A stretch of DNA of 64,000 nucleotides from an uncultured Pseudomonadota bacterium (GCA_963836235.1 CAWIIP010000002.1:139454-203453); one strand, 5' to 3'; counted from the first letter of the stretch, positions 26,303 through 61,724 are shown. Numbers and translations: made by a program. Notes: generated from the sequence alone by a model not told the origin.

Positions 26303-26377
26303 AAAATCACTTTTCCTGTAAAACAGCAACCTCTGGGTTGTCCACGACGGGTCCCCGTCGTGGACAGGTAGAATCAA

Positions 26378-32230: not shown

Positions 32231-32237
32231 AAAACCT

Positions 32238-46090: not shown

Positions 46091-46105
46091 GAATATCTCT
46101 CCTCA

Positions 46106-46441: not shown

Positions 46442-46455
46442 AATCCAATCCTTCC

Positions 46456-46734: not shown

Positions 46735-46845
46735 GGTGCCGTCCTGGATTGCATTTTAGGGCCATCCAAAAAAATCCTGAACAGAAAGTCGAATAATTTT
46801 AGACCGGGATACCGCCCCGCCGGCCAGGCCGGCGGGGCGAAAATC

Positions 46846-47214: not shown

Positions 47215-47707
47215 AGATGCTCCTTATCTTTATTTGGGAGGGGCCCCCTCCGGGGGGCGGCCCTCAAAGAATCTGGGCCGCAACACGGAGGCGAGAGAGG
47301 GTTGGTGGGTGGAGATTGAGCCGTGCGAAAGAAGCACCTAGCCAACCCCAGCAAACCGCTTCGGGCAAAGTGCCGAAGGGCGGACGCCGCGGCGGACGCA
47401 TCTAGGCATTTAGCGGCCCTTGCCCCTGGGCCAGACGGTATTTGGCGGCCCAGGGGTGCGATCTATCAGGCCAGCGGCACGATGAGGTTTGCGAACCTTG
47501 AAGCCGTTCGATCTTGGGGGTCCGGGGGGATCTTCCGCCCGGGCTAGGAGAGGGGCGCGGGGAGAGGGGTTTTTCTTTCCCCGAAAATTCCGAGGCCCGG
47601 CATAGGGAAGGTTACACGGCCGCTTTGCGGCCGGCGAACCTTCTTCAAACCCGCCAGGGTGCCGGGCCGAGCAAAACAAAAGGCCCCCCTAAGAGGGCCT
47701 CCGGTCT
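47215..47707. promoter_or_regulatory. GC-rich structured noncoding element A1 (member of repeated family with 48934..49620 and 52236..52760)
   Basis: Shares blocks with A2/A3: cccggagggggcccctccc next to the gene start, gggggtccggggg...ccgcccgggcta, and hairpin GAAGGTTACACGGCCGCTTTGCGGCCGGCGAACCTTC. All ORFs called inside are low-complexity P/G/R translations. Confidence 0.6.
47672..47702 (-). terminator. Rho-independent terminator (minus strand) after gene 47708..48100
   Basis: Hairpin AGGCCCCCCTAAGAGGGCCT followed on the minus strand by a U-run (plus-strand caaaacaaaa). Confidence 0.6.
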
Positions 47708-48100
47708 TCAAGCCGTAGGGTGTGAAGATTTTTCCAAGGGGTGTTTCTTGGAACACTTAGGGCAAAACTTCCCGTCTCTGCCCTCGACGGGCAAGGAATC
47801 CTTCAAGAGAATTTCCGTGTTGCAAACTTGGCACCAAGTGGCGTAGGTATCATCCGAAAGGATTTGAGGAACCAATTTTTTAATAAGGCCCTTCCCTACC
47901 GTGGCCCGGCCAAATTCATAAGCCCAACGGGTGGCGGTGTACTTATCCTTTCCCGGCCAAGTAAGGCGGCGGTATTCGTCTCCCTGGGCGGCGTCCCCTC
48001 CGTCGTCGTCCTCCACCTTGAAAACTTGTAAGCCGGGAATGTCTGACACCACATCGGACAAAACCCCACCTTCCATAAAAATGATAATTTTCGGCATAAC
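47708..48100 (-). CDS. Hypothetical protein with C-terminal zinc ribbon
   Basis: Start at MPKIIIFMEGG with SD AAGGAGG; C-terminal CQVCN...CPKC. Confidence 0.45.
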   Translation of the reverse strand, partial: VMPKIIIFMEGGVLSDVVSDIPGLQVFKVEDDDGGDAAQGDEYRRLTWPGKDKYTATRWAYEFGRATVGKGLIKKLVPQILSDDTYATWCQVCNTEILLKDSLPVEGRDGKFCPKCSKKHPLEKSSHPTA

Positions 48101-48107
48101 GTCCTCC

Positions 48108-48404
48108 TTAAAGTTCGTATTTTTCGGCAAAGTTTGAAAGTGATTCAGCGGAAGCGGCACAAACGTCCAGCGCGCGCGCGGCGGCCAAGCCGACAAGGGC
48201 GCTCCCGCCTTCCTCAAAATCCAGTTTTGAAAATATCGTTTCGGCCTGGTCGGTGAGGTAGTTGTTTAAAGCTCCCGCAACTTCCAAAAGGCCGTGATGG
48301 CTTACGAGAAACGCTAAAACGTCATAAGGCTCGTAAGTCTCAAGGCGGTATTTTTTAAACTCCTTTACGGTTTCTTTTTCCGGCCCTAACAATTTGATTT
48401 CCAT
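48108..48404 (-). CDS. Hypothetical protein
   Basis: 98 aa; SD TAGGAGG 6 nt upstream of ATG. Confidence 0.45.
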   Translation of the reverse strand: MEIKLLGPEKETVKEFKKYRLETYEPYDVLAFLVSHHGLLEVAGALNNYLTDQAETIFSKLDFEEGGSALVGLAAARALDVCAASAESLSNFAEKYEL

Positions 48405-48444
48405 AAATCCTCCTAAAATTTTTCATCCCCAAAGGGGCGATTTC

Positions 48445-48933
48445 TTAAACCAAAAGCCCTGCGGTGCGGAAGGAAAAGTGGCCTTCGTGGGTGACTATCA
48501 AGTGATCATGAACGGTTATCCCCAGGGCACGGGCGGCGGTGATAATTTGGCGGGTCAATTGCTTGTCCCCTTCCGATGGTTCAAGGCTTCCGGCTGGGTG
48601 ATTGTGGGAAAATATGATCCCCGTGGCGTTTAACTCCAAAGCTTTTTTTAGTACCTCTCTTGGATAAACGGCGGTATGGTCCACGGTTCCTTCGCTGTTC
48701 AAAACCGTTTCTAAAACGTGGTTGCGGTGGTCGAGGTACATGGTGACAAAAGCCTCTTTGTCCCTGCCTCCGATGTATTTGGCAAAATAGGCCACTACAT
48801 CATCTGGGCTTGTTACAACCGGGCCTCTCTCGTAATCGGTCCTTGCTTCGGACCATGAAACCGGGGGAACCGTGGGGGGAATTTTGAACATCACTTCCAA
48901 AGGCATTTCTAACTGCTTGATTCTCTTGCTCAT
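48445..48933 (-). CDS. radC: RadC-like JAB/MPN domain protein
   Basis: HNHPAGSLEPSEGD (HNHPSG JAMM motif) and surrounding RadC-family conservation. Confidence 0.8.
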   Translation of the reverse strand: MSKRIKQLEMPLEVMFKIPPTVPPVSWSEARTDYERGPVVTSPDDVVAYFAKYIGGRDKEAFVTMYLDHRNHVLETVLNSEGTVDHTAVYPREVLKKALELNATGIIFSHNHPAGSLEPSEGDKQLTRQIITAARALGITVHDHLIVTHEGHFSFRTAGLLV

Positions 48934-49620
48934 TTTGAACGCTCCGCTTTTTTATTAGAGGAGAGAGCACCCTCCGGGTGCGCCCCCTCAAAAATCCTTG
49001 GGGGCGCATACGGAGCGAGTAAGGTGTTTGTGTTGGGGCAAATCAATGTCGGCGGGTCCTGCGCCTTGGTGTTAGCAGACCGGGAAAATTCCCAAACAGG
49101 TTTTGGGCCGAAAGACGAGGAACGAGGCGTGGCCCGTTTGGGAATTTAGGCGCTGACCGATCCCGGCGGCGATAGCCGCCCGTCGATTTGGTTTGCGTCC
49201 TCTATGTCTTTCGTTTCTGGGGTTGCCAGGGGTCACTGTCCCTTGGCTAGGGTGGGGATATAGGGGAGGGTCTTTTCCCTCCCCCTGGGGGGTCCGGGGG
49301 ATGGCTCGAACGAGCCCGCCGCCCGGGCTAGGGTGGGCACCTGGCCCGTCGCTTTCAAAGCGAGGGCCTCGCAGTGGTGGTGCAAACAGCATTGAAGCTG
49401 TTTGCAAAAGGGTAGGGGTACTTCCCTTCCCTGCTTTAATGATTTTCGAGGCGCGGCAAAGGGAAGGTTACACGGCCAAAGGCCGGCGAACCTTCCTCAA
49501 TCCCGATAGGGGCCGCACCGAGACAAAGAACACCTTAATCGGCTTTTCCCCATACACCTTCCCGACCCTTCTCAAGATAGACGCGTTTCACGTAAAGTGT
49601 AATATGTAGGCCTGGCCCCT
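48934..49620. promoter_or_regulatory. GC-rich structured noncoding element A2 (closest relative of A3)
   Basis: First ~60 nt (ttattagaggagagagcaccctccgggtgcgccccctcaaaaatccttgggggcgcatacggagcga) nearly identical to the start of A3; shared ~100-nt block ggtcact...ctagggtgggg...ggggggtccggggga...cgccgcccgggcta; perfect hairpin GCAAACAGCATTGAAGCTGTTTGC; GAAGGTTACACGGCC...GGCGAACCTTC hairpin. Confidence 0.65.
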
Positions 49621-49812
49621 TTTTCTATGGGGAAACGCCGCCCGGTCTACCGTGTGGAAATTGGAGTCGCGGGGAAAAGTTAATCCATAAAAACCGACGA
49701 ACGAATTTGGATTTTAGTGAGGAGGTTTTTAACTTTGAGGGCCGGCGATTAAAAAATTACACAGGCAAAAGGAGGAAATCTGTCCAGAGGGTCCAAAGCC
49801 CCTTTAATGGAA

Positions 49813-50409
49813 TTACTGTGAGGGTGGGAGAGGGAGAGTTGTGATATTTAATTTTTTATTGACGTATTGAATCCATTTCTCAGCGGAATTTCTTTGGTCA
49901 TCTGTCTGGGCCGTTTGAACAGCCGCATTAAAATATTTTAACGAATCTTGCCACCTATCCTCTTTAGTTAATTTTACTCCATACGAGAAGTAAGAATTAA
50001 AGTTTTCACCACCTTCCAAATTTGAAGAATTGGAAGCTTGGAGGTCGGCATTCATATTTTTCTGGTTAAGTTTATTCCAATCAGAGGTAATGGCGTCTAC
50101 GATTAAAGGAATAAAACCTAATAGGAAACCTGGAACAACATCCAAAACTATCCATCCACCATCAACACCATTACTCAACGAGCTTGTTTGGGTGGTATAT
50201 CCAGGTTTCCTAAATTCAACATTATGAGTTTTGTTAGATTCTAGAGGAACAGAAACTGGGGTAGTTCCCCTTTGCAAACCATCAACATAAACTTCTGCAC
50301 CAGGGGGATTGGAGGAAAATTCAACAGGTTCTGCACCACCTTTAAAGACCGTTGCGCAACCGGTAGAAATAAGGCTGAACACTAACATTAAAGCCATTAA
50401 CTTTTTCAT
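49813..50409 (-). CDS. PEGA-domain lipoprotein
   Basis: Start MKKLMALMLVFSLISTGC (lipobox); PPGAEVYVDGLQRGTTP = PEGA motif. Confidence 0.6.
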   Translation of the reverse strand: MKKLMALMLVFSLISTGCATVFKGGAEPVEFSSNPPGAEVYVDGLQRGTTPVSVPLESNKTHNVEFRKPGYTTQTSSLSNGVDGGWIVLDVVPGFLLGFIPLIVDAITSDWNKLNQKNMNADLQASNSSNLEGGENFNSYFSYGVKLTKEDRWQDSLKYFNAAVQTAQTDDQRNSAEKWIQYVNKKLNITTLPLPPSQ

Positions 50410-50555
50410 AACACTCCGAATGATCAAGCGTCCACTTATTTCATCGAGATATAAGGTTAATTGTCGTGACTACCCTTGGTCAACACAAAAATAGGCTAGG
50501 AGGGGAGGCACTTCCGTTGCACACCATCCTTTTTGCGACAGCCATGTGCAGGTAT

Positions 50556-50873
50556 TTAGGCACTCTTTTTCCCGCGGGCGAGTTCCCTTTCAAATAGAAT
50601 CCGCACCCCGAAAGCGTGAAGAACCTTTTCTAAACTCGAAAGGGTTGGATTTCCCTTCTCGGAAAGCATCGTGTAAAGGGATTCCCTCGCAAGTTGTGTT
50701 TCCTTGGAAAGCTTTTTCATCCCGCCTAGGGCGTCGGCCACGTTCTTCAATGCCTTCAAAAAGTATTTAAAATCTCCGGTTTCCCAAGCGGCGTTTATGT
50801 ATCGGACCCGTGTTTTAAGGTCTTGAAGTTCTTCAAACAAATAACTTTTATGGTCAATCAATCCAAATTTCAT
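50556..50873 (-). CDS. Addiction-module antidote protein, HTH type (HI1420-like)
   Basis: LKALKNVADALGGMKKLSKETQLARESLYTMLSEKGNPTLSSLEKVLHAFGV matches the conserved HI1420-type antidote pattern; 4-nt overlap with upstream toxin gene. Confidence 0.7.
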   Translation of the reverse strand: MKFGLIDHKSYLFEELQDLKTRVRYINAAWETGDFKYFLKALKNVADALGGMKKLSKETQLARESLYTMLSEKGNPTLSSLEKVLHAFGVRILFERELARGKKSA

Positions 50874-51244
50874 TTCACGCTCCCTTTAAAAGCCGCCCAT
50901 AGCTTGGTGGCTTTCTTTGTGTCATTATCCTGATTGTCTTTTTCTCCCCCACAAACCACGACGATGATGGCTCCCTTATGATAGCCGTAATAAACCCGGA
51001 AACCTCTTCCGTAATGAATCCTTAATTCCCAAAGGCCCCCGGTCTTTGGCAGGTCGTGATGATCGCCAAAATTCCCGTCCTCCATCCGGTCAACCGCCAT
51101 CCGTATAAGGTCCTTGGCGGTTTCGTCCTTTAAGCGGCGGTGCCACTCCTTGTATAAAACCTTACCGTCTACCTCCAAATATTTAACTACAAAGGGGTGG
51201 TTTTCCATGCCTGAACCTAGTGTAATATTTATATTACTCATTGT
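50870..51244 (-). CDS. Addiction-module killer protein, RelE/ParE superfamily (HI1419-like)
   Basis: GDHHDLPKTGGLWELRIHYGRGFRVYYGYHKGAIIVVVCGGEKDNQDNDTKKATKLW matches the HI1419-type toxin pattern. Start chosen at MSNINITLG; upstream part of the 172-aa ORF looks non-coding. Confidence 0.65.
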   Translation of the reverse strand, partial: TMSNINITLGSGMENHPFVVKYLEVDGKVLYKEWHRRLKDETAKDLIRMAVDRMEDGNFGDHHDLPKTGGLWELRIHYGRGFRVYYGYHKGAIIVVVCGGEKDNQDNDTKKATKLWAAFKGSVK

Positions 51245-51301
51245 CAAATCTTCCTTTCGAAAACAATCCCGAAAGGGGCCGCACCGAGACAAAGAACACC
51301 C

Positions 51302-51343
51302 CAAAAAAAGCCCCCCGGTTTGAAACCGGGGGGCTTTTCTTCC
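51302..51343. terminator. Bidirectional rho-independent terminator downstream of ardC
   Basis: Hairpin GCCCCCCGGTTTGAAACCGGGGGGC flanked by caaaaaaa (5') and ttttcttcc (3'). Confidence 0.65.
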
Positions 51344-51362
51344 TGAAAGGATGGAGCTGTTA

Positions 51363-52235
51363 TTAAGCGGCTTCCTCCTTCTTTTCAAATTTCACGCCTA
51401 AGATAAAGTCGGCTGCGGATTGGGCGAGTGATGCCGCCCGGAAAATGGCGCGGGTGTCATCCTTTAAAACCTTGATCCAGTTTTGGACATAGGCGGCGTG
51501 TTGGGTGTCGTATTCGTAGCCGACATGCCCAGCCAAGAAAGCCCCGCCTATTTCGGCGACAAGTTCCTCGAAGGCATAATCAACTGAACCGAAAACCAGG
51601 GACTGCTTGCGGTTAAGCCGTTTCGGGTGGCCGCTCCAGTGGGTTAGCTCATGGTAACTCGTGGAAAAAAATTTCTCCTCCGTCTTGAAAGAACGGCGAG
51701 GGGGAAGGTTGATATAGTCCAAAGTCGGGGAGTAAAAAGCCTTGTCGGGGTTTTCTTCAACGATCTTCGCCCCGGATTGGGTGAGGATGCGCTCGGCTTC
51801 CTCGTTCTTGTTGAAAGGCTTTTCCTCGGCGCTCTTGGGCCGCAAGTGGTCGAGTCCCTCGGTTTGGTCCAGGTTGAAAACCGTAAAATATTTTAGGTAT
51901 TTGATAACCTTCTTTTCAAAATCCCCTTCCGCTTTTTCCTCCTTCACCGTCAAGGGCTTGAAGAAAATGACCTCAACCCCCTTGGCCCCGGCCTTGATGT
52001 TGCCTCCCGCTGTTTTGGCCTGTTGGTAGGTGAGCCAAGAGTTACAGGAAAAACCCTGGCGGCTCGCAACCGAGGTAAGCCAAATAACATTCACCCCCCG
52101 GTATGCCTTCCGGGTGGCGGCGTTCTTGGGGAAGTTTCCGGTTTTAATCCAGGGCGTTTCCCAAAAAAGATTTCCTTTCTCCATGTCCTCCAAAATTTGG
52201 TTGGTGATTTTCTCCATCAAATCGTTTGTTTTCAT
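51363..52235 (-). CDS. ardC: ArdC-like antirestriction protein (N-terminal ssDNA-binding domain + C-terminal HExxH zincin domain)
   Basis: N-terminus KAYRGVNVIWLTSVASRQGFSCNSWLTYQQAKTAGGNIKAGAKG matches ArdC-N; C-terminal YHELTHWSGH metalloprotease motif. Confidence 0.75.
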   Translation of the reverse strand: MKTNDLMEKITNQILEDMEKGNLFWETPWIKTGNFPKNAATRKAYRGVNVIWLTSVASRQGFSCNSWLTYQQAKTAGGNIKAGAKGVEVIFFKPLTVKEEKAEGDFEKKVIKYLKYFTVFNLDQTEGLDHLRPKSAEEKPFNKNEEAERILTQSGAKIVEENPDKAFYSPTLDYINLPPRRSFKTEEKFFSTSYHELTHWSGHPKRLNRKQSLVFGSVDYAFEELVAEIGGAFLAGHVGYEYDTQHAAYVQNWIKVLKDDTRAIFRAASLAQSAADFILGVKFEKKEEAA

Positions 52236-52760
52236 CTGGCCTGCTCCCTTTGATTTATTAGAGGAGAGCCGCCCTCCGGGTGGGCCCCCTCAAAAATCCT
52301 TGGGGGCCCAAACGGAGCGAAAGAGGTGTTGTTGTTGGGGTAAAACAAGATCGAGGGTCCTGCGGTGTTCCTTTAGCAGATCGGGAAAATTCCAAAACAG
52401 TTGTGGGGCCGGATAAGCCGACGAAGGAGGCCCGGCCCGTTTTGAAATTTAGGCGCCGACCGATCCCGACGGCGTTTATCCGCCCTCACCCTCCAGGTGA
52501 GGGCGAAGGTTGATAATGCCAACTCTATAAGAGTTGGTAAAAGCCGCCCGGCGATTTGTTTTGCGTCCACGTTGTCTTTCGCTTCCGGGGGTTCCGGGGG
52601 TCACTTCCCGCCGGGCTAGGGATGGGAATAGGGAAGGGGCTGTTCCCTTCCCTTGGGGGGGTCCGGGGGAAACGCCGCCCGGACTACAGGTTTGGGAAAC
52701 GGTTGAAAAGGTTGGGGGATAAATCGGCGGGAACAAAACCTTTAAAAAAAAGCCGAAAGG
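52236..52760. promoter_or_regulatory. GC-rich structured noncoding element A3
   Basis: See A2; directly abuts the ardC start codon. Divergent intergenic region shared with SpoVG-like gene 1. Confidence 0.65.
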
Positions 52761-53127
52761 CTTTTCACCTTATGGGCCAAAAAAGCGACCGGCCTTGGGT
52801 CTCACGCCCCTTCCCTCGTCCCCAAATACCGTGGACGGTGAACCAGGCCTCGAACGCTGCCGTTGCACTCTCGCGATTCGTCGCTTAAAGGATTGCCTGA
52901 CCAGAGCTCCAGGTCATCCGCTCCGCTACTTCCCTTCCGCCAAAAGCACGCGGAAGTCCCTTAATCATCGTTGCCGGAAAAACCGGCAACCTCGACTTCC
53001 GCACCAGGCAGGCCTGCTTGAGGGCAGGCCGCCAAGAATCCTTTTTACCCGCGCCCCCCTACTCGTTCGTAGAGGGGGGCGCAGTAAAAAGGCGCGAAAC
53101 CCTCAAATAAAAATGAGGAGGATTCGC

Positions 53128-53547
53128 ATGAATCCAAAGATTGAAGTAGAGAAGTTGAATATCGCCAAGAAAGGACAGCAGGTCGGGACGTTCTCCGCTC
53201 GGGTGGGCTTCGATGGCGGGTGTGAGGTTACTCTACCCGGTATGAGGATCGTCGAGGGGGCCAAAGGGACTTTCGTGGATGTTCCGTCAAGGCAGTTCAA
53301 GGACGTGGGCTTTGTTCCCTTTTACTACTTGAACAAGGCCTTAAGGGATTTAATCACGCATGAGGCGCTGGATGCCTACCGCAAAGCGGTGGCGGAAAAG
53401 GCGGGTGAGAAACCGACGAGTCCGGCGGTGCCGGCGGCCCCTGCAGGGCCCGCAGTTGCGGCGGTAAAGCCGGAAAGTCCAGTGGTTCCCTCTCAAGCGA
53501 AAACGTGGCCACGGAAGGAATGGAAGCCAAACCCGGCAAGGAAATAG
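53128..53547 (+). CDS. SpoVG-like nucleic-acid-binding protein, paralog 1
   Basis: Start at MNPKIEV preceded by SD GGAGGA. FSARVGFDGGCEVTLPGMRIVEGAKGTFVDVPSRQFKDVGFVPFYYLNKALRDLI aligns with SpoVG core ([52 protein letters not shown]). ~250-nt conserved leader at 52840..53127. Confidence 0.6.
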   Translation: MNPKIEVEKLNIAKKGQQVGTFSARVGFDGGCEVTLPGMRIVEGAKGTFVDVPSRQFKDVGFVPFYYLNKALRDLITHEALDAYRKAVAEKAGEKPTSPAVPAAPAGPAVAAVKPESPVVPSQAKTWPRKEWKPNPARK

Positions 53548-53561
53548 AAGATAAAAGAAGG

Positions 53562-53595
53562 GCCCGGGGCCGAGAGGCTCCGGGCTCTTTTTGTT
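53562..53595 (+). terminator. Rho-independent terminator after SpoVG-like gene 1
   Basis: GCCCGGGGCCGAGAGGCTCCGGGC + TCTTTTTGTT. Confidence 0.65.
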
Positions 53596-53645
53596 GAAGG
53601 GGGAAGGTTTGGAGGGGCGTACTACCCCCTCCAACTTTGTCAGTT

Positions 53646-54041
53646 CTAGGGTTTAGGCTGTTTAGCGAAGGTCTTGTCGAACGACCCTTTCCAGCGAATC
53701 CCCTTTACCCGACCTTCCATGATTGCGTCCGCCTTCTCGTCAATTTCTTTGGCGAGTTTGGGACCGGGTTTATAAAATTTCGTTCCATTGTATTCAAAAA
53801 GGAATTTGTTAGATTTACTTCTCAGGCGGGTCTTTTTCGGCAGGTTTGCCTTATTCGGTTTCTTAGGTTTTGATTTCACGATTTTCCCCCCAACCAAGGC
53901 ATCCGCCACGTTTTTGAGGGAAGAAAGAATATGTTTCTTATCCCGCCTGTCGAGGGCGGCGTTTAGATAACCCTTCCTGATTTCAGGGTCTTTTAGTTCC
54001 TTCAAAAGAAATTCATGATGATCGACTGTTCGGCCTTTCAT
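53646..54041 (-). CDS. Protein with HI1420-type antidote-like N-terminus fused to a basic Lys-rich tail
   Basis: KGRTVDHHEFLLKELKDPEIRKGYLNAALDRRDKKHILSSLKNVADALVGG parallels the N-terminus of 50556..50873, but the HTH part is replaced by a K/P-rich region. Confidence 0.4.
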   Translation of the reverse strand: MKGRTVDHHEFLLKELKDPEIRKGYLNAALDRRDKKHILSSLKNVADALVGGKIVKSKPKKPNKANLPKKTRLRSKSNKFLFEYNGTKFYKPGPKLAKEIDEKADAIMEGRVKGIRWKGSFDKTFAKQPKP

Positions 54042-54080
54042 ATTATCCTCCGTTGGAAAGCTCCTAAGGCGCAAACACCT

Positions 54081-54419
54081 TTAAAAGTTTACGGTTAAGT
54101 CAACGTTCTTAACCAGATCGGAAGCCGTCACCCCCAAGGCCTTGGCAATAAGGTCAATTATTCCTAAGGTCGGGCTATAGGTGCTGTTCTCGTTTTCAAT
54201 ATTCAAAACCGTCCGGCTGGAAACACCCGCCTTCTCGGCCAATTCAACTTGGGTCAATTTCTTCTTGTTCCGCAACTTAATGAGGTTCCAACCAAGGGAA
54301 ACCCTTGGGCTCGGATTCTTCAAAGAGGCGTAAAGGTCGGGCCGTCTTTTCTTAAGGTGTTTAATGTCTTCTTCAATGGAAACTCCCGGCAAAACAATTT
54401 TTTTAAAATGTGTTTTCAT
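54081..54419 (-). CDS. XRE-family HTH protein (antitoxin-like)
   Basis: LIKLRNKKKLTQVELAEKAGVSSRTVLNIEN = HTH_XRE. Confidence 0.7.
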   Translation of the reverse strand: MKTHFKKIVLPGVSIEEDIKHLKKRRPDLYASLKNPSPRVSLGWNLIKLRNKKKLTQVELAEKAGVSSRTVLNIENENSTYSPTLGIIDLIAKALGVTASDLVKNVDLTVNF

Positions 54420-54707
54420 TTATTCCCCCTCCAATGCTTTTATTTCAGCTAAGTATTTTTGAATCGCCTCTTTTTCTTTTTCGCGCGGCTCCCCCGCCCT
54501 GGTGATATGGGCGGTCAAAATGAAAAGGGCGTGCAACTTAAAAGACAAATAATAATTCACCACCAAAACCCTTTTTTCTCCCTTTAAAATTTTATCAAAA
54601 AAACCAGAACGGTCTTTAGCATAAGCAAGCCCCAAAACCTGGAACCTTAAAAGGTCAAGCTCTTCCCGGTCCATAATGTTGTCCCGGAAGTTCCGAAAAT
54701 ACGGCAT
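54420..54707 (-). CDS. Putative toxin partner of the downstream XRE antitoxin (RelE/HigB-like?)
   Basis: 95 aa; directly abuts the HTH gene in HigBA-like order; sequence assignment weak. Confidence 0.4.
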   Translation of the reverse strand: MPYFRNFRDNIMDREELDLLRFQVLGLAYAKDRSGFFDKILKGEKRVLVVNYYLSFKLHALFILTAHITRAGEPREKEKEAIQKYLAEIKALEGE

Positions 54708-54748
54708 AAATCCATAAAAACCTCACTTCTTATTATGTGTAGTATCCT

Positions 54749-54991
54749 TCATATAGTCAAGTACGACAAACTGCGCTCGATAAAATCCTCATAATCCGAA
54801 TCAAAAACATCCTGGCACTTGAGGCAGTTTCCGGTTTCTTCGTCTAACGGGAGGGCGTTGCTTCCGCACGAAAAACAAAACCCCTTGCAAGCGGGGCAGG
54901 GTGTCCCCTCTTTTTCGTCGTCCCATCCGTGGCCACATTTCCAAGCGGAAAAAGGAAAATGGAGTCCTGTTTTAGAAATTTCGTTTATCAA
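54749..54991 (-). CDS. Small Cys-rich (zinc-binding) protein
   Basis: 80 aa with CGHGW, CPACKGFCFSCG, CLKC clusters. Confidence 0.4.
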   Translation of the reverse strand: MINEISKTGLHFPFSAWKCGHGWDDEKEGTPCPACKGFCFSCGSNALPLDEETGNCLKCQDVFDSDYEDFIERSLSYLTI

Positions 54992-55098
54992 ATTTTTTCT
55001 CCTTAAATCCTTTCTTCTTTGATTAGTTCCAAAAACCTATCGATTTCCTGGTCGGGAACCCTGAAAAGTTCCTCTATGTTTTTGATCTCTTCGTTCAT

Positions 55099-55560
55099 TT
55101 CCCCTGCTCCTTCGCTTTTTTTTCGGGGCTTTTAAGTTCCTGCCCCCACCGGCACAAGCCGGCGGTGGGGGCAGGAACTTGAAGGGGATTCCGCAGGAAA
55201 AATTTGGTTTCAATGCGACAGCAGCGCCGACCTTGCCGACCATGACAATTGCGATCTTCAATTGGCGTGGGCGGTGCTTTGCAGTCGGCGCATTTGAAAG
55301 GAATTAAATTTTCTTAGGAATAGACCATTGGCAAAGCGGGGGCACCTCGCCCTTTGCCCACAAGGCAAAGGGCGGCGTCTTGGTTGTGCAAACAGCAATA
55401 AGCTGTTTGCACATAGGGGCGGGTTGGCCCCGGATGGTTAAATGGATGAAGGTTACACGCCCGCGAAATCAGCGGTCGGCGAACCTTCTTAGGTATTTTT
55501 CGAAGGGACTTAGGCTTTCAACAAGGCCTTAAAACCAAAACCGCGAACGGCGATCCGAAA
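55099..55560. promoter_or_regulatory. Structured noncoding element B1 (related to 59504..59800; contains sub-modules also found in A2)
   Basis: 17-bp hairpin TTCCTGCCCCCACCGGC-ACAA-GCCGGCGGTGGGGGCAGGAA; conserved block gacaattgcgatcttcaattggcgtgggcggtgctttgcagtcggcgcat; hairpin GCAAACAGCAATAAGCTGTTTGC; GAAGGTTACACGCCC...GGCGAACCTTC. A 31-aa micro-ORF (55003..55098, minus) sits at its edge. Confidence 0.6.
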
Positions 55561-55863
55561 CCTCAAGTCAAAGATAAAGAATGCCAACACAGATTCATAA
55601 GGAATCAGCAACCGGCCTGGCCCTCCGGGACCCCGGGCAAAATCAGCCCGGCGGCCTCGAACGCTGTCGGCCTCCTCCTCCGTCGTCGCCTTTCGCGATT
55701 CGTCGCTTAAAGCAATTTTCTAACAGGGCTACAGGTCATCCGCTCCGCTGCTTCCCTTCCGCAAAGGAACATACAAACTTTTTACCGCGCCCCCCTACTC
55801 GTTCGTAGAGGGGGGCGCAGTAAAAAGGCGCGAAACCCCAAAATAAAAATGAGGAGGATTCGA

Positions 55864-56280
55864 ATGAATCCAAAGATTGAAGTTGTGAAGTTGAATATCG
55901 CCAGGAAGGGACACCAGGTCGGGACGTTCTCCGTCAAGGTTGGGTTCGATGGCGGGTGTGAAGTGACGCTACCGGGGATGAGGATCGTCGAGGGTTCCAA
56001 AGGAACCTTCGTGGATCTGCCGGCGAGAAAGTTCAAGGAAGGGGGCTTTGTTCCCTTCTACTACTTGAACAAGTCTTTGAAGGATTTGATCACCAAGGAA
56101 GGGCTGGAGAATTACCGAAAGGCCGGGACGGGGAAGCAACCGGAGAAGGCGGCATTCGCGGTCCCTGCGGCCGCAAGGCCAGCGGCGGCCAGCGCGACCA
56201 TGGTTTCAAAACCAACGGTTCCTGCTCCGGCGAAAACGTGGCCACGGAAGGAGTGGAAACCGAATTCATTTAAAAAATAA
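55864..56280 (+). CDS. SpoVG-like nucleic-acid-binding protein, paralog 2
   Basis: MNPKIEVVKLNIARKGHQVGTFSVKVGFDGGCEVTLPGMRIVEGSKGTFVDLPARKF... ~85% identical to paralog 1 over the N-terminal 90 aa; same SD and conserved leader (55630..55863). Confidence 0.6.
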   Translation: MNPKIEVVKLNIARKGHQVGTFSVKVGFDGGCEVTLPGMRIVEGSKGTFVDLPARKFKEGGFVPFYYLNKSLKDLITKEGLENYRKAGTGKQPEKAAFAVPAAARPAAASATMVSKPTVPAPAKTWPRKEWKPNSFKK

Positions 56281-56293
56281 AAGAAGGAAAATG

Positions 56294-56327
56294 GCCCGGC
56301 TCCTAGAGGAGTCGGGCTTTTTTTGTT
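56294..56327 (+). terminator. Rho-independent terminator after SpoVG-like gene 2
   Basis: GCCCGGCTCCTAGAGGAGTCGGGC + TTTTTTTGTTT. Confidence 0.65.
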
Positions 56328-56380
56328 TCGCGGGGGGAGGTTTGGAGGGGCGTCCTACCCTCTTCTAGCCTTTTTGGGAT

Positions 56381-56581
56381 TTATTCGGGGTGAACTTCAA
56401 TTCCCTTCACGGCCCCGCTTTTCATTTCCTTATAACGAACTATGATTTCTTTATGCTCTTTGGCGGTTGGTTTCCTGAACTTTAAAGGGGCGTTTTTGTA
56501 AACAGCCTCAACCAATTCAGCCACCAGCCTCCCAACCTTGGGGACTCTTGGCCCGTGGGCCGTCTTTTTCATCAGATTCAA
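56381..56581 (-). CDS. Small protein, possible ParD/RelB-like antitoxin (C-terminal EMKSG.VK motif)
   Basis: 66 aa; C-terminus VRYKEMKSGAVKGIEV shares a motif with 57725..57976. Confidence 0.3.
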   Translation of the reverse strand: MNLMKKTAHGPRVPKVGRLVAELVEAVYKNAPLKFRKPTAKEHKEIIVRYKEMKSGAVKGIEVHPE

Positions 56582-56772
56582 ACTTTAGACAATCGGCGTT
56601 CAACTGAGCGCGAGGGCGGCATAAGTTCCTTTTTGCAAACACTTTTTATGAACTCATCCGTCTCTTTTCGATGCTTTTGATTAAACTTTACAATTCCCAG
56701 ACGGTTCATCTCGTTGGAAACTCTCTGTTTCCATTTTCTGACTTCCGTCAAACTCTTAGGTTCCTTCATCAC
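56578..56772 (-). CDS. Small hypothetical protein
   Basis: 64-aa ORF overlapping the downstream small gene by 4 nt. Confidence 0.3.
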   Translation of the reverse strand: MMKEPKSLTEVRKWKQRVSNEMNRLGIVKFNQKHRKETDEFIKSVCKKELMPPSRSVERRLSKV

Positions 56773-56802
56773 CTAACACCTCCAAAGGGGATGGCAATTT
56801 AA

Positions 56803-57156
56803 TTAATGTCCTGCCGCTGGAACCAATCCCGTCAATTTACCCGCCATTTCGAAAAGAAGCTTTTTTGTTTGGGAGGGGTGAGTTTTTATGCCTTCTGCCC
56901 AATAGCCAACCGCCGCCGGAATCGGGTTCTTACCTTGCTCCCATTTCTTTACCGTTTCCGAACTAACAGCCATGATTCGGGCGAATTGGGGTTGGGAAAC
57001 CTTCAGAATATTTCTCGCGTCCTTTATATCCTGGCCTGTAGTGCGGATGAAAAGGTTTTCGACCTTAACTTTGGCGGGTTTCCCTTGGGCAAATTTGAGA
57101 CCTTCCCTAAGGCTTTCCCTGAACAATTTCTTTTCTTCCTTTGTTTTTTTCATCAT
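56803..57156 (-). CDS. HTH (XRE/HigA-like) antitoxin
   Basis: ARNILKVSQPQFARIMAVSSETVKKWEQGKNPIPAAV = HTH of HigA-type antitoxins; 4-nt overlap with upstream toxin gene. Confidence 0.65.
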   Translation of the reverse strand: MMKKTKEEKKLFRESLREGLKFAQGKPAKVKVENLFIRTTGQDIKDARNILKVSQPQFARIMAVSSETVKKWEQGKNPIPAAVGYWAEGIKTHPSQTKKLLFEMAGKLTGLVPAAGH

Positions 57157-57602
57157 CGATCCCCTCCCTCTTTCTGGTAGGCTTTTTTTATGCCTTCCGC
57201 GGTTTTTTTTAGTTCCTTTAAATCATTGGCGTCTAAATTTAATTTATTCCTGTGGTCGTAAATTGAGAACAGGTAAATATCATGTTGAACACGAAAAAGA
57301 AGGTAAGTGAATCTAAAGCCTCCGCTTTTCCCGATGTTCCGGCTGGGTGATTTTGCCCGGCCTTTTATCCATCCTCCCGTACCTTTGATTTCGTCAAGCT
57401 TTCCGGATTCAACTTCCAACCTGATACTGTCACGTATTTCCTCGTGTAATTTGGGCTCCAACCTCACCAATTTTTTAAGGTCGCTCTCATATTGAAGGAG
57501 CTTAATGAGGCGGTATTTGATTTTCGAAACGTCAATTTCTTCCACGAGTACCCTAATCTTTATGATATGGTATCTTATACCATATGTCATATAACAGGTC
57601 AA
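57153..57602 (-). CDS. RelE/HigB-family toxin
   Basis: GKSGGFRFTYLLFRVQHDIYLFSIYDHRNKLNLDANDLKELKK matches the RelE/HigB C-terminal core. Confidence 0.6.
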   Translation of the reverse strand: MTCYMTYGIRYHIIKIRVLVEEIDVSKIKYRLIKLLQYESDLKKLVRLEPKLHEEIRDSIRLEVESGKLDEIKGTGGWIKGRAKSPSRNIGKSGGFRFTYLLFRVQHDIYLFSIYDHRNKLNLDANDLKELKKTAEGIKKAYQKEGGDR

Positions 57603-57724
57603 CCAATATATTATGAAAACCCGGATACAAAGCCTCCGGCGGGGCCATTCCTTTACTTGCCCTTTTCATCGGGAGAGCCTTGTAGACCCTAGGGCCGCTG
57701 TTCTCCTTCGAGGACCATTAGCTC

Positions 57725-57976
57725 TTAAAGTTTCTCCAAGTGTTTGATGAGGTCTTGAGAAGAAATCGTCTTGACCTTGCCGCTTTTCATTTCGGCCACC
57801 CCACGGCGAATCTCTGCCGCTTCCTTGGGTGAAGGCTTGCTAAACTTCCAGCCCTTGTGTTCAACGATATCATTTGATTTGTTACCCACGGCGGTATCTT
57901 TCAGGCCGGACTTTTTCATCGGGAATCCAAGTCCCTTCCCGGTCGGCTTTTGCGGCGGCTTTAACAATCTTCGCAT
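57725..57976 (-). CDS. Small basic protein with ParD/RelB-like C-terminal motif
   Basis: C-terminus IRRGVAEMKSGKVKTISSQDLIKHLEKL. Confidence 0.3.
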   Translation of the reverse strand: MRRLLKPPQKPTGKGLGFPMKKSGLKDTAVGNKSNDIVEHKGWKFSKPSPKEAAEIRRGVAEMKSGKVKTISSQDLIKHLEKL

Positions 57977-58057
57977 GGGTTTTAGCGTCGGGCTTGGTGA
58001 GTTTAAGCCCCATGTGTTCCACCACTACCTTTTTAATCAAAATCCCCTCCAACATTT

Positions 58058-58375
58058 TTACTTCTTCTTTCCAAATAGGCGCCGGTACTCCTCGGCGGAA
58101 ATTCCCTTGCGTTTCTTTCCGTAGCCTTCCGTAACCCTGGCCCCTCCGTGGAAGATTCCGTAACCAAGTTTCTTTTTCGCCATGGGTTGAATGGCCTCAA
58201 GGAAATCCTGCCACTTTGGATCGTGGGCCTTCTGGCCCATTTCGATGGCGGCCTGAACGGCCCCACGGGCGAAGGATGAGAAGTCCTTCACGCCCAAAGC
58301 CTTAAGGGACTCTTCCCAATACTTCGCCTGGGAAGATTTAGCTTTGAAACGGATCATCACGAATTTTCTTTTCAT
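58058..58375 (-). CDS. Hypothetical protein
   Basis: 105-aa basic protein; no motif recognised. Confidence 0.35.
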   Translation of the reverse strand: MKRKFVMIRFKAKSSQAKYWEESLKALGVKDFSSFARGAVQAAIEMGQKAHDPKWQDFLEAIQPMAKKKLGYGIFHGGARVTEGYGKKRKGISAEEYRRLFGKKK

Positions 58376-58441
58376 CCAAAGCCTTTCCTAATAAGAACCT
58401 GGCGAATAACTCCAGCCTACCCGCGACTAAAATATTTAAAC

Positions 58442-58843
58442 TTATCGAATCCACTTCACCTTAATGTCTTTTTCAACGGATTTGAATTCTTTGTCCCCGG
58501 TCACGAGGTGGGCGTTTCTCAATTTTGCCGTCGCGGCGGCGTATGCGTCGGCGTAAGACATCTTATGAGTCCCTTTGAATCGCGCCGCAACAAGGGTCAA
58601 TTCCCTACCCACGTCCAAAACCTGGATATCCATTTCCGCAAGCGTTTTTTCATACAGCATCGCTCTTTCTTCCCCGCCCTCCCTAAAAGCCGTGTACCAA
58701 ACCTCTCCCCAATTCACGATACAAAGGAAAGCCTCGGCGTGGCCGTCCGCGATTTCATTTAAAACGGAAACAACGACTTCCTTGCCCTCTTCCCCTTCCA
58801 AATAGGCCAAAAGGGCGTGGGCGTCCAAAACGTAATGTTTCAA
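58442..58843 (-). CDS. vapC: PIN-domain toxin VapC
   Basis: 133 aa; VLDAHALLAYL... and acidic residues in PIN spacing; overlaps antitoxin by 4 nt. Confidence 0.8.
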   Translation of the reverse strand: MKHYVLDAHALLAYLEGEEGKEVVVSVLNEIADGHAEAFLCIVNWGEVWYTAFREGGEERAMLYEKTLAEMDIQVLDVGRELTLVAARFKGTHKMSYADAYAAATAKLRNAHLVTGDKEFKSVEKDIKVKWIR

Positions 58844-59070
58844 AGCTCGCGCTCAGCTTTCTTTTCTTCCGCCAAAAGCTTTAAAAGCTTGCCCTTGGTC
58901 CCGAGAATCCCGCAGTTCTTCCTTATCAAATCCTTGGTCATGGGAACCATGCGGATCTCCCCGTCTTTCTCAAAAAATTTGACGGAAGTCCCCTTCTTGA
59001 TTCCGAATTTTTCCCTGAATTCAGCCGGAATGACTACTTGGCCTTTTTCGGAAACGTGTGTAATCAGCAT
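58840..59070 (-). CDS. vapB: AbrB/SpoVT-type antitoxin VapB
   Basis: Start MLITHVSEKGQVVIPAEFREKFGIKKGTSV (swapped-hairpin AbrB-like domain) with SD GGGAGG. Confidence 0.7.
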   Translation of the reverse strand: MLITHVSEKGQVVIPAEFREKFGIKKGTSVKFFEKDGEIRMVPMTKDLIRKNCGILGTKGKLLKLLAEEKKAEREL

Positions 59071-59194
59071 AAAAACCTCCCAAAAGTAAAACATATTTAC
59101 TATGTAAAACTTATTTATAAGGTACAACTTTATTGAACCGTAGTCAAATAAAGACTAATTGCCGGGTACAAAGCCCCCGGCGGGGCCGTTCCTC

Positions 59195-59503
59195 TTACTT
59201 GCCCTTTTTCACCGGGAGGGCCTTGTAGACCTTCTCGGCTTCGGGCAGAACCTCGTCGTTGAGGTTGTTGAAGGGGTAGTAGCACTTGATGAATTCAGGC
59301 TTGCCACCTTGCTCCTTCGCTTGCTTGACCTCGTGGATTGCGGAGTCCACTTTCAACCCCTTATCCGTCTGGACTAGCCGGTAGTTCGGTAGGGTGATAA
59401 GCGGCTCACCGTCCACCGACACCGTGACCTTGAAAAATGCCAGGGTCTTGGTGTCCTCCTTCTTGGTTTTTTTCATGTCCTTCACTTCGATTTGCAGTCC
59501 CAT
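59195..59503 (-). CDS. SpoVG-like protein, divergent paralog 3
   Basis: Start MGLQIEVKDMKK with SD AAGGAG. LAFFKVTVSVDGEPLITLPNYRLVQTDKGLKVDSAIHEVKQ...FIKCYYPFNN...AEKVYKAL aligns position-by-position with paralogs 1 and 2. Confidence 0.45.
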   Translation of the reverse strand: MGLQIEVKDMKKTKKEDTKTLAFFKVTVSVDGEPLITLPNYRLVQTDKGLKVDSAIHEVKQAKEQGGKPEFIKCYYPFNNLNDEVLPEAEKVYKALPVKKGK

Positions 59504-59800
59504 GACTTGCTCCTTATTTTTATTATTGCCTGGGGCCTTCGGCCTCTTTTTTGCGGGACTTTTAAATTTCCGGCCCCGCCGGCACAAGGCCGGCGGCGGG
59601 GCTGGAAATTAAGAAGGGGATTCCATCTTGGGAATTTATTCACCAAGCGATAGCGGCGCCGACCCGATGTTTTTTATCGCCCTTGGCCGAAGGCCAACGG
59701 GTAGGCCTCACATGACAATCGCGGGTTTCGATTGGCGTGGGAGGTGCCTCGCAGTCGGCGCATCTTTAAAAAATAAATTTTCAAAGGAATCTTCACGTAT
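59504..59800. promoter_or_regulatory. Structured noncoding element B2
   Basis: Hairpin TTCCGGCCCCGCCGGC-ACAA-GGCCGGCGGCGGGGCTGGAA with compensatory changes relative to B1; conserved block gacaatcgcgggtttcgattggcgtgggaggtgcctcgcagtcggcgcat. Confidence 0.6.
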
Positions 59801-59987
59801 TATTGCCCGACTGGACAATACCAGTGACCGAAGTGAAATAGTAATCAGTGAGAGGATTAGGTAAAGGGCAAAAGTTTTGGGCCTTAGCAACATTCACCAA
59901 CATTAGACAGATAAAAAATATATTCAGTTTTTGAAAAATAATTTTCAATTTCAACAACCTTAGATAGAACTTTTTCTTGAACCCGAT

Positions 59988-60725
59988 TTAATTAGAATGA
60001 TATTTTCCAACCGGTTCTGCGTACTTGACCGATGGGTCAGTTTTCATTTCTTCAATTGCGTCTTTCACGGACATTCCATTTGTAATTTGAATAAGGTAAT
60101 ATTCCATTTTAAGAGCTTGTAAAACTTCATGCTTTACGTCACCTATCGACCCCATTAGTTTGAGGACTCTTTCATTATCAGTTGCGGGAATATCTGATTT
60201 TAATCCGACCATAATTTGATTCGCATCGTAATCTTTACCTGGCACAAGCCGATCCCAATTGGGGGTCGGGTAAGGTTTGTGCGTTGGGGTTGGTGTTGGA
60301 GAAGCGAAAAAAGTTTCCAAGTTAGTAATGATAACGGGTTCAGCAAATGAAACAGCTGGATCAGCTTTCAGCTTTTCGTAAGCGCCTTTCGACGACATAC
60401 CATTTGTAACCTTGATATTCCAACCTTCCGCCCCATTGGTATTTTTTGTAACACCCATCGACATCATTATTCCAATAATTCTATTTTTTTCAGAAAGAGG
60501 GAGGTGTGGTTTTAACCCGACCAAAATCACCTTGTCTTTTTCAAGAACCGGCCAATTAAAATGACGTGTCGGAACGGGAGAAGAAGAAGTAAGGTTTGCC
60601 CCATTGACACTTCCATTTGATTGAAGTGAAGTGGGACCTGCCGAGGCCGAAGAAAAAATAAAATATTGTATTATCAACAAAAATGATAAAAATAAATTTC
60701 TATGCTTGCGAAAGTCCATTGTCAA
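59988..60725 (-). CDS. Secreted protein with two tandem subtilisin-propeptide (inhibitor I9)-like domains
   Basis: Signal peptide; two ~75-aa repeats ending VSFAEPV / VKYAEPV, typical of I9 propeptide C-termini; no protease domain. Confidence 0.5.
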   Translation of the reverse strand: MTMDFRKHRNLFLSFLLIIQYFIFSSASAGPTSLQSNGSVNGANLTSSSPVPTRHFNWPVLEKDKVILVGLKPHLPLSEKNRIIGIMMSMGVTKNTNGAEGWNIKVTNGMSSKGAYEKLKADPAVSFAEPVIITNLETFFASPTPTPTHKPYPTPNWDRLVPGKDYDANQIMVGLKSDIPATDNERVLKLMGSIGDVKHEVLQALKMEYYLIQITNGMSVKDAIEEMKTDPSVKYAEPVGKYHSN

Positions 60726-60756: not shown

Positions 60757-61724
60757 AATCCAGATTCACCCCGGTCAGGCGCACGGTGCAGCCGCCGCTG
60801 GCGGTGACGATTTCGTTTCCGGAAACCTTAAGCAGGGGAGGAGCGGCTTGCGCGGGAGTTGGACCGAAAAAAGTGGAACCCAAAAGCACAAAAAGCGAAA
60901 GAAAGAAAAAGTTCATTTCGCCCCGGGACGTTTTAAGCCGGGAACCAAAGAACGTTTTCGTTTTGAAAAATAAGTTTTGTGGAGACCTGTTCAAAGTGTC
61001 ACCCGATACACTGGTTAAAGGTTGCGGAACAATTGGCAACAAAACTCGAAATGTTTCATCGCTTCTCATGAACCGGAATTTCCCAGATGACCTTCTCTGA
61101 AAACATTGCCGGGTAATTTGTTTCTCATTATATCGCCCCCCCCCCCCCGCTTCTTCCATCCGAATCCGGAATTTTCCGTCCTGGGCCACTGAAATAAGCC
61201 CCAGGAAAAGGTTTCTGTGCCCAAAAAAGCTGAAATTGACCTTCTGGAAAGCCAATTCTCGTTGTGAGCGCACACCTATCCTGCGGTAGTCGCTCGGGTT
61301 GAAGCCTTGATGCCTTCCTGCGGTTATCGCAGTACTGGCGCTCGCGGCCTTACCATTGCCAGTAGCCGTATCCGATTGAGGATTTCAGCAAACAGGCGTC
61401 GGGAAACCATCACCTCCGCCATCTGGAAAATAACGTACCGCGAATGACGGATGACATTAGCCCCGATCTTGATGAGTTTTTCCCTCAAGGTCGTTAGCGA
61501 CCAATGTTTCACCAGTTCTGGCAGTGCCAGTCGGCGCAGGAAGTTGCCCAGATTGTAGGCCAGGGCGAATAGTTGTAAGCGCACTTGGTTGTCCGCGAAG
61601 TCGTGGCAGCTTAGTCTTGTCCACTTCATCGCATACTTTCCCTCTTTGATCCACTGCTCAGCCGTGCCTCTTCCGTTGTAGAATTTCACCACCTGGGGTG
61701 CCGGTCGTCGCATGTTCGTTACGA
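60757..61724. repeat. Segmental duplication copy B (968 bp), containing a 5' pseudogene fragment of the GH5 gene (60757..60969, minus strand)
   Basis: Identical to 35985..36900 apart from a 53-nt insertion (61020..61072) and C13 vs C14 tract. Includes the cellulase ATG (60969..60967) and first 71 codons fused to unrelated sequence. Confidence 0.9.

Follow-up and report, generated by a model that had tools for sequence, protein, structure and literature searches.

The timing with which anti-restriction and establishment genes are switched on is understood for only a few enterobacterial plasmids. A stretch of 64,000 nucleotides (nt) from an uncultured Pseudomonadota bacterium (GCA_963836235.1, CAWIIP010000002.1:139454-203453), called the window here and numbered from its first letter, raises this question in an uncultivated bacterium: it carries an island in which covariation-supported elements stand before ArdC, RadC, and companion genes. 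Two of these elements, B1 and B2, had been pointed out in an earlier note on this DNA, which regarded them as cis-acting elements built around a GC-rich hairpin with compensatory base changes. What are they, and which of their strands folds? We found that B1 and B2 are copies of one domain, the B-core, which has a covarying fold, lies at a fixed position and in a fixed orientation before start codons, and is restricted to this kind of island. We tentatively read the B-core as a transcribed, structured 5' leader that would act in cis on the downstream gene, a reading that we consider quite possible without calling it probable.

B1 and B2 are copies of one domain that abuts start codons

As the earlier note had said, both elements begin at the start codon of a minus-strand gene, B1 at that of a 31-amino-acid (aa) open reading frame (ORF), hereafter the micro-ORF, and B2 at that of a SpoVG-like paralog (paralog 3). 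The two are homologous, with an alignment of ~230 to 290 nt. This alignment includes the conserved block reported to follow the hairpin, which is present in both elements (55241-55311 and 59711-59781) and belongs to the P1-P3 domain of the fold described below. Both elements fold better than dinucleotide shuffles on either strand (z of -3.2 to -8.2). Furthermore, the 5' arm of helix P0 is the point from which the homology between B1 and B2 runs and at which independent rearrangement breakpoints lie, which fits a self-contained domain.

Copies of the B-core were gathered by pattern scans, protein look-ups, and a covariance-model search covering the window, a metagenome-assembled genome (MAG), and metagenome contigs; the MAG and metagenome sequences carrying relatives are designated by L-numbers (L001, L018, L019, etc.). 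We obtained 24 matches representing 14 distinct sequences, and all copies found lie upstream of a gene, in the orientation of that gene. The model matched the window twice (55124-55325 with 207.8 bits for B1, 59554-59794 with 224.8 bits for B2) and its chromosomal part (1-24 kb) not at all. Pattern scans matched island-type loci only (six sites, spread over one MAG and two metagenome contigs), and the copies outside the window precede the same few island genes. Diverged copies were found in L018 and L017, where the downstream proteins are ~60% identical to those of the window, and in L019 (L019b).

Most relatives have ~1 kb of conserved noncoding sequence rich in hairpins before the SpoVG-like paralog 3 gene (L019 2950-4001, L007 1-997, L009-L011, L014, L015, L017 5000-6003, L018 1276-2272, and L002 690-1611), of which the B-core makes up the quarter nearest the gene. 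Insert hairpins of differing sequence occupy the same positions in it. This full-length version of ~1 kb may be a large, ornate noncoding RNA in its own right. Compared to these relatives, B2 of the window is truncated at its 5' side, being cut at ~59795 and lacking the distal 750 nt.

The B-core has a multibranched, covarying fold

The fold was derived with RNAalifold and by manual inspection. It is multibranched and consists of the helices P0, P0b, P1, P1a, P2, P3, and P4. P0 is formed by GAUUCC/GGAAUC, and P0b by an AT-rich block paired with the downstream linker (AAUUUAUU/AAUAAAUU in B2, GGUGAUUUC/GAAAUCACC in L018, and GAAAAUUU/AAAUUUUC in L019b); the P0b sequence of L018 differs yet stays complementary. 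P1 (GCGCCGAC/GUCGGCGC) encloses P1a, P2, and P3, of which P2 occurs as CCUC/GAGG, CCGC/GCGG, or UCCG/CGGA and P3 as CAAUCG/CGAUUG, CAAUUG/CAAUUG, CAAUCC/GGAUUG, CGGG/CCCG, or CAAC/GUUG. After P4 come an A-run, in some copies a small hairpin, a Shine-Dalgarno sequence, and AUG. Additionally, B2 and L018 have insert hairpins, variable in length, at junctions.

Covariation statistics were computed on 10 distinct copies with 56 pairs and 500 shuffles. Pairing was found in 93.7% of the cells, compared to 87.1% in the shuffles, and 18 of the 56 pairs were changed on both sides where 5.8 were expected; neither value was reached in any of the 500 shuffles. Pairs changed on both sides include three in P2 and five in P3. 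When the structures were slid by 1 to 3 columns, only 28 to 51% remained paired. Against 300 mononucleotide shuffles of one of its arms, the P0b duplex scored better on the antisense strand in all 7 sequence types (P ≤ 0.007) and on the sense strand in 5 of the 7 (P ≤ 0.013). The earlier claim of selection on secondary structure is thus borne out by the covariation counts, and because of them it extends well beyond the GC hairpin.

P4 is the GC hairpin from which the earlier description had started. Both quoted sequences are present on the plus strand, TTCCTGCCCCCACCGGC-ACAA-GCCGGCGGTGGGGGCAGGAA at 55137-55177 and TTCCGGCCCCGCCGGC-ACAA-GGCCGGCGGCGGGGCTGGAA at 59568-59607, and the inverted repeats extend through AT-rich bases to the limits given in Table 1. 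The stem, described earlier as one of 17 bp, consists of a lower part of 11 to 12 bp (12 bp in B1), a 3-nt bulge, and a 5-bp top (CCGGC/GCCGG). The B1 loop reads ACAA on the plus strand and UUGU in gene sense. P4 lies 40 to 60 nt before the ATG, with the A-run and the Shine-Dalgarno sequence in between. B1 and B2 differ at three places in P4: an A-T to G-C swap, a T-A to G.T change, and a length difference of 1 bp. The second of these is G.T on the plus strand and A.C in gene sense in B2 and pairs on the plus strand only. Hence the "several" compensatory changes announced for this stem reduce to one clean swap when B1 and B2 are taken alone, whereas with further copies (L018, L019b) the statement stands, six P4 pairs having changes on both sides across copies. 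Indeed, the main hairpin of L019b (L019 6607-6810) has an entirely different 18-bp sequence, without a bulge and with another loop. L022 (~385-435) has the 5-nt loop of its main hairpin in inverted form (ACAAG for CUUGU, gene sense) between unchanged arms, as if the loop had been turned around in the DNA itself.

Table 1. Coordinates of the B elements, related leaders, and neighboring features in the window
Feature	Position	Strand	Remarks
B1 core	55099-55325	minus (strand of the downstream gene)	from the micro-ORF start codon to the 5' arm of P0
B1 P4	55131-55183		main GC hairpin, inverted repeat
B1 P1-P3 domain	55224-55291		P1 GCGCCGAC/GTCGGCGC enclosing P1a, P2, and P3
B1 distal modules	55348-55488		hairpins 55348-55374, 55385-55413 (GCAAACAGC...), and 55448-55488 (GAAGGTTACACG...GGCGAACCTTC)
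B2 core	59504-59794	minus	B1 fold plus two extra hairpins (59665-59705) at a junction
B2 P4	59559-59616		main GC hairpin, inverted repeat
B2 P1-P3 domain	59657-59751		includes the B2-specific insert hairpins
31-aa micro-ORF	55003-55098	minus	directly downstream of B1
SpoVG-like paralog 3 gene	59195-59503	minus	downstream of B2
Mosaic leader before the DUF6876 gene	47215-47707	minus	class A proximal part plus GAAGGTT hairpin
Class A leader before RadC	48934-49540	minus	GCAAACAGC and GAAGGTT modules as in B1; 35 nt (49138-49172) as in B2
Class A leader before ArdC	52236-52720	minus
Perfect GC palindrome	46813-46839		13-nt arms; 3' of the DUF6876 gene
DUF6876 gene	46846-47214	minus
RadC gene	48445-48933	minus
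ArdC gene	51363-52235	minus
Serine recombinase	24374-25210		recombinase found in the window

Hairpin modules are shared with the class A leaders

Blocks are shared in a mosaic fashion by the five long intergenic regions that lie before minus-strand genes (47215-47707, 48934-49812, 52236-53127, 55099-55863, and 59504-59987). The GCAAACAGC hairpin occurs at 49382 and 55388, and the GAAGGTTACACG...GGCGAACCTTC hairpin at 47607, 49463, and 55448, with differing inner stems. The distal modules of B1 are common to the region before RadC (49330-49530) and to 47607-47643, while positions 59628-59662 of B2 resemble 49138-49172 and 52441-52475. It had been claimed that the two B1 hairpins are also found in a class A element; this is true of the leader before RadC (49382-49405 and 49463-49495), neither being present before ArdC, and GAAGGTT is also found at 47607. 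Overall, these data support the earlier proposal of cis-acting, modular elements having modules in common with the class A intergenic regions.

Class A leaders have compensatory changes of their own, for example UGCGCCCCC/GGGGGCGCA versus UGGGCCCCC/GGGGGCCCA versus GCGGCCC/GGGCCGC, and they are kept in a contig whose RadC is only 67% identical. They were rejected as distant relatives of the B elements, as the B model gives no match on them; B and class A are therefore distinct families with some common modules. The third hairpin named in the earlier note, which placed it at 46833-46861, lies instead at 46813-46839, just 3' of the DUF6876 gene. This palindrome has only the string CCCCGCCGG in common with the B elements and was rejected as one of them, the B model giving E = 0.29 there.

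The gene-proximal end of all class A leaders (48940-48985, 52240-52290, and 47218-47260; L025 4950-5000) consists of a GGAGG hairpin arm and a CCUCC-like arm, which an A-rich spacer separates from the true GGAG before the ATG. Such a Shine-Dalgarno mimic/anti-Shine-Dalgarno arrangement could gate translation. The plus-strand SpoVG-like genes have conserved upstream regions of their own (53040-53092 and 55778-55827), with a hairpin of ~21 bp ~40 nt before the ATG that has an AT-rich base and a GC-rich top and is preceded by a T-run and followed by an A-run.

The elements belong to a recently moved island

The first 24 kb of the window are ordinary chromosome with SecA, LigA, and riboflavin genes. 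The island extends from the serine recombinase at 24374 to ~62 kb and contains insertion sequence copies, a type III restriction system, DUF6876, RadC, ArdC, three SpoVG-like genes, and many toxin-antitoxin or helix-turn-helix pairs, nearly all on the minus strand. The micro-ORF is conserved ahead of RadC or ArdC in other contigs (94% and 52% identity). Its homologs of 31 to 41 aa have the motif VP(D/E)xEI(D/E)RxLE and are found directly before RadC in L008 (1472-1567, minus) and directly before ArdC in L025 (6332-6457, plus). SpoVG-like paralog 3 is 31% identical to the two plus-strand SpoVG-like proteins and belongs to a very small family, for which 9 clusters were found; the known distribution of the B-core is narrow for this reason. 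No relaxase gene, type IV secretion system (T4SS) gene, or origin of transfer (oriT) was seen among the ORFs scanned in the 64 kb visible. A comparison of the island proteins with PHROGs gave essentially no matches and thus no phage link.

MAG CAVYRH01 carries the island at 98 to 99.5% identity (window 46400-59400 versus L001, L004, and L006), whereas the adjacent riboflavin-region genes (13468-16134) are only ~72 to 78% identical to those of the window. We conclude that the island moved recently between genomes. The MAG has several rearranged copies of the island over four contigs, which suggests recent horizontal transfer and multiplication.

Further repeats were noticed in the island. The palindrome TTGTCCACGACGGGTCCCCGTCGTGGACA lies near its edge at 25244-25272, 26338-26366, and 28555-28583 and recurs at the MAG loci (L001, L002, L003, and L006); it may be a REP-like (repetitive extragenic palindrome) or recombination site. 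A segment is duplicated at 35985-36910 and from 60757-61435 onward, the matching blocks being identical and the offsets differing by ~52 bases. It holds the 5' end of a Pro/Thr-rich glycoside hydrolase gene, a DDE transposase (the copy at 36500-36889 is truncated), and, in both segments, a run of 13 C (36311-36323 and 61136-61148). Long arrays with a 12-nt period (32200-35000) encode Thr/Pro/Ser-rich repeats in the glycoside hydrolase gene, which spans 33031-36303 and encodes a secreted protein of 1090 aa. Two copies of a 37-nt repeat, 97% identical, lie at 49498-49534 and 51264-51300, the first adjoining a 1-kb segment with a lipoprotein gene (49539-50552) that is missing from the MAG. In the 1.6-Mb contig L025, three tandem tyrosine recombinase genes (7193-10475) come after a RadC/ArdC cluster with class A leaders, an arrangement that resembles "recombinase in trio" elements.

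Several known types of element do not fit the B-core

Rfam 15 gave no match at gathering scores in the whole window, and a sensitive scan of 46000-60200 returned only sub-threshold hairpin matches to microRNA and small RNA models. No match to the B1 intergenic region or to the 1-kb L019 leader was found by blastn (word size 11) in the 72,556 plasmids of PLSDB, including those of Escherichia and Klebsiella. Pattern scans of viral contigs also gave no matches. REP or BIME-type (bacterial interspersed mosaic element) repeats, which are short palindromes of 20 to 40 nt, were rejected, the unit measuring 200 to 290 nt with nested helices; with two copies in the window and none in its chromosomal part, the B-core also does not look like the chromosome-wide repeat that the earlier note had considered.

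The suggestions of a terminator and of an oriT were not upheld either. No T-run follows P4 on the plus strand, where TTGAAGGGG or AATTAAGAAG comes next, or on the minus strand, where CTTAAAAGC or AAATTTAAAAG does, and the terminator scan does not list this hairpin. As for an oriT, the fold is present in several copies and always before a start codon: within 13 kb, no fewer than two B-cores and three class A leaders directly adjoin one. There is also no relaxase among the ORFs scanned; nick motifs were not searched for. Integron attC sites are imperfect palindromes of 57 to 141 nt at the 3' end of cassette ORFs, with an integron integrase nearby. The B element is larger and lies 5' of genes, the recombinase of the window is of the serine type, and the element was rejected as attC (the R/L box consensus was not searched for). 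The AT-rich block does not fit a sigma-70, sigma-54, sigma-32, or Bacteroidetes-type promoter in spacing and hexamers, and its part as a strand of helix P0b makes a double-strand promoter unlikely there. Finally, the CTTCCC motif was not enriched, and sequestration of the Shine-Dalgarno sequence by the CCCCUUC block of the B elements was discarded, the pairing not being kept in L018, L019b, and L017 (by eye).

A sense 5' leader RNA and its alternatives

In the reading that we prefer, the B-core would be transcribed together with its gene, as a 5' leader or as an intercistronic RNA. The long AT-rich P0/P0b closes a three-way domain (P1, P1a, P2, and P3), which is followed by P4, the A-rich tract, the Shine-Dalgarno sequence, and the start codon. 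Protection or processing of the transcript would fall to the stable hairpins, and the folded domain, possibly by binding an island-encoded factor, would determine the output of the anti-restriction or "establishment" gene. Class A would represent a second leader family of the same island, with both families drawing on a common pool of hairpin modules. We infer that the sense RNA is the molecule that folds and that the expression of the gene is affected. This reading was ranked first because the element is strictly tied to the Shine-Dalgarno sequence and start codon and is portable between genes. It was also favored because plausible promoters lie at the 5' edge of conservation: the class A leader of L025 starts directly after a sigma-70-like TAGACA-18-TTAAAT, and the long version in L019 and L014 starts just after TAGAAT (hexamers by eye). 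Furthermore, a comparable design is found on either DNA strand according to the orientation of the gene; since the plus-strand SpoVG-like genes have it on the other strand, the design follows the gene and not one DNA strand. The GGAGG/CCUCC-like/GGAG arrangement of class A would be meaningful only in sense RNA. Conserved covarying structures located directly before start codons are usually cis-regulatory RNAs.

Several results weigh against a sense leader, most of them bearing on the strand. The structure conservation index was 0.80 on the plus strand (antisense, the template and G-rich strand) versus 0.72 on the sense strand, and the mean z was -5.9 versus -4.0, with 8 of 10 sequences in agreement. 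For the long alignment, the consensus folding energy was -238 kcal/mol (antisense) versus -195 kcal/mol (sense). In 5 of 7 sequence types the P0/P0b duplex was better by 5 to 9 kcal/mol on the plus strand, and in 5 of 7 it was continuous on the antisense strand only. Sense-strand G.U pairs were not enriched: the model-fitted alignment had 13 G.U, 22 A.C, and 13 other mismatches among 722 cells, a balance that does not decide the strand, and the helices common to both strand predictions had 20, 18, and 30, respectively. Single substitutions were mixed, those in L009, L002b, and L017 favoring the sense strand and those in L002a and at B2-type P4 and P0b positions the antisense strand. The moderate antisense preference was seen in the B-core alignment only; z-scores of the window intergenic regions were similar on both strands, and neither the class A regions nor those upstream of the plus-strand SpoVG-like genes had this z-score preference. 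Apart from the strand, the sequence upstream of B1, B2, and the class A leaders of the window yielded no promoter that convinces; near-consensus promoters do stand before toxin-antitoxin operons of this island. An ORF stops where the long leader starts in several relatives, and, as no Rfam family matches, the mechanism has no precedent.

The better folding of the template strand would be explained if the element acted as single-stranded DNA (ssDNA) in the manner of Frpo, each module folding once the island has entered, by conjugation or mobilization, in single-stranded form. It could then recruit RNA polymerase, as the ssDNA promoters (Frpo and the single-strand initiation site [ssi]) of F and ColIb-P9 do, or stall complementary-strand synthesis, and either way ArdC, RadC, and neighboring genes would be expressed early. 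We regard this alternative, the main rival of the leader, as unlikely, though to be taken seriously; the earlier note had named an ssi, and not a leader RNA, among the possible functions. The genes are of the leading-region type (ArdC, RadC, DUF6876, and toxin-antitoxin pairs) and almost all on one strand, and ArdC homologs are present in 3167 PLSDB plasmids, 56% of them conjugative. Homologous structured elements are repeated before successive operons, as described for Frpo repeats (PMC11541004, PMC12672017), and no double-strand promoters were found for the leader genes, those of the toxin-antitoxin pairs being canonical. On neither strand is G.T more frequent than other mismatches, which would suit DNA over RNA, if weakly. 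The plus-strand DNA folding energies (-68 kcal/mol per 297 nt and -122 kcal/mol per 462 nt) are close to the cutoff of -75 kcal/mol per 300 nt used in a search for ssDNA promoters (PMC12672017), and a preprint of 2026 describes an ssDNA promoter as being also a structural roadblock to strand conversion (10.64898/2026.01.09.698686). However, a promoter scan of both strands of 55099-55560 and 59504-59800 gave no site, and inspection of the P0/P0b and P4 arms revealed no -35/-10 hexamers at proper spacing. The fold is multibranched instead of one long hairpin, has no DNA similarity to any PLSDB plasmid, and in relatives exists in a 1-kb version far longer than known ssDNA promoters; moreover, comparable structures stand upstream of the plus-strand SpoVG-like genes on the other strand, and a relaxase, T4SS gene, or oriT was not seen among the window ORFs scanned. 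A bolder form of the idea, slightly more doubtful still, is that the B and A modules form a new architectural class of ssDNA "zygotic induction" elements, whose multibranched template-strand folds would drive or prolong early anti-restriction expression on entry of a mobilizable island, in an uncultivated lineage that is distant from the enterobacterial plasmids known to carry Frpo.

The same strand data, together with the G-richness of the plus strand, would also be accounted for by an antisense RNA transcribed from the plus strand across the leader and serving as a cis-antisense regulator, as FinP does on traJ. Two divergent intergenic regions contain facing terminator-like hairpins, one pair at ~52741-52766 (by eye; not in the terminator scan) and the other formed by the minus-strand site 55556-55538 and the plus-strand T-rich tail after 55448-55488 (tail by eye). 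This explanation nevertheless seems improbable to us: there is no plus-strand promoter between the start codon and P4, P4 lacks a T-run, and in B2 an antisense transcript would be stopped before reaching the core by the plus-strand terminator-like site 59532-59546 with its T-run. In addition, the homology of the module ends at the Shine-Dalgarno region, so that a portable antisense promoter would have to sit inside unrelated genes. We give equally little credence to the view that the elements shuffle gene cassettes at the level of the DNA, as recombination substrates or selfish repeats of a REP-like or attC-like kind, and have no role in expression. The mosaic of leader-plus-gene units among the window, the MAG, and other contigs speaks for it, as do rearrangement breakpoints at module edges, the 37-nt repeat pair next to the segment missing from the MAG, and the inverted P4 loop of L022. 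Yet a REP or attC site does not require nested multihelix covariation over 200 to 290 nt, the module always stands before a start codon and not behind genes, and its copies are few (two in 64 kb, none in the chromosomal part); neither an integron integrase nor a REP-associated tyrosine transposase (RAYT) was seen among the ORFs scanned.

If the B-core acts as RNA, it would be a new leader family tied to anti-defense genes; if it acts as ssDNA, single-strand promoters or roadblocks would be widespread and structurally diverse. If true, the ssDNA reading would be considerably more interesting, and so would the idea that the 1-kb version is a large RNA. The covariance model and alignments provide a concrete handle for transcript mapping and mutational tests.

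Comparison with known systems

Structured 5' leaders and riboswitch-like motifs resemble the B-core in their multihelix covarying folds with variable insert hairpins, in their fixed distance to the Shine-Dalgarno sequence and start codon, and in being portable between downstream genes. Unlike them, the B-core has no Rfam match, no sense-strand G.U excess, and no identified promoter, ligand, or expression platform, and its other strand folds slightly better. The STAXI motif, reportedly described by Weinberg et al. in 2010, is said to occur in Bacteroidales near genes for SSB, topoisomerase, anti-restriction proteins, and integrase and to be a tandem array of a small pseudoknotted hairpin, for which a role in ssDNA was considered. 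It shares with the B-core the character of a structured noncoding motif tied to anti-restriction genes in mobile DNA; the B-core differs in being a single large domain, with no Rfam match of any kind. The single-strand origins (sso) of rolling-circle plasmids and ICEBs1 are folded, orientation-specific noncoding DNA of 150 to 300 nt, active only when single-stranded. They occur once or twice per replicon, are not tied to start codons, and have the conserved motifs RSB and CS-6. In contrast, the B-core is tied to start codons.

The Frpo/ssi elements from the F, ColIb-P9, and pESBL leading regions are similar in that several homologous, strongly folding noncoding elements of a few hundred nt (PMC11541004, PMC12672017) each lie directly before an anti-restriction or establishment operon, in one orientation and with comparable DNA folding energies. 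In the 64 kb visible, the elements are co-oriented with ArdC, RadC, DUF6876, and toxin-antitoxin genes. The B and A elements differ from Frpo/ssi in having no sequence similarity to them, in being multibranched and not one long hairpin, in a stem without -35/-10 hexamers, in that no oriT or relaxase was seen nearby among the ORFs scanned, and in the 1 kb of structured sequence present in some relatives. Overall, the B-core forms a hitherto undescribed family tied to anti-restriction islands; its kind, that of covarying structured elements preceding genes, is a familiar one.

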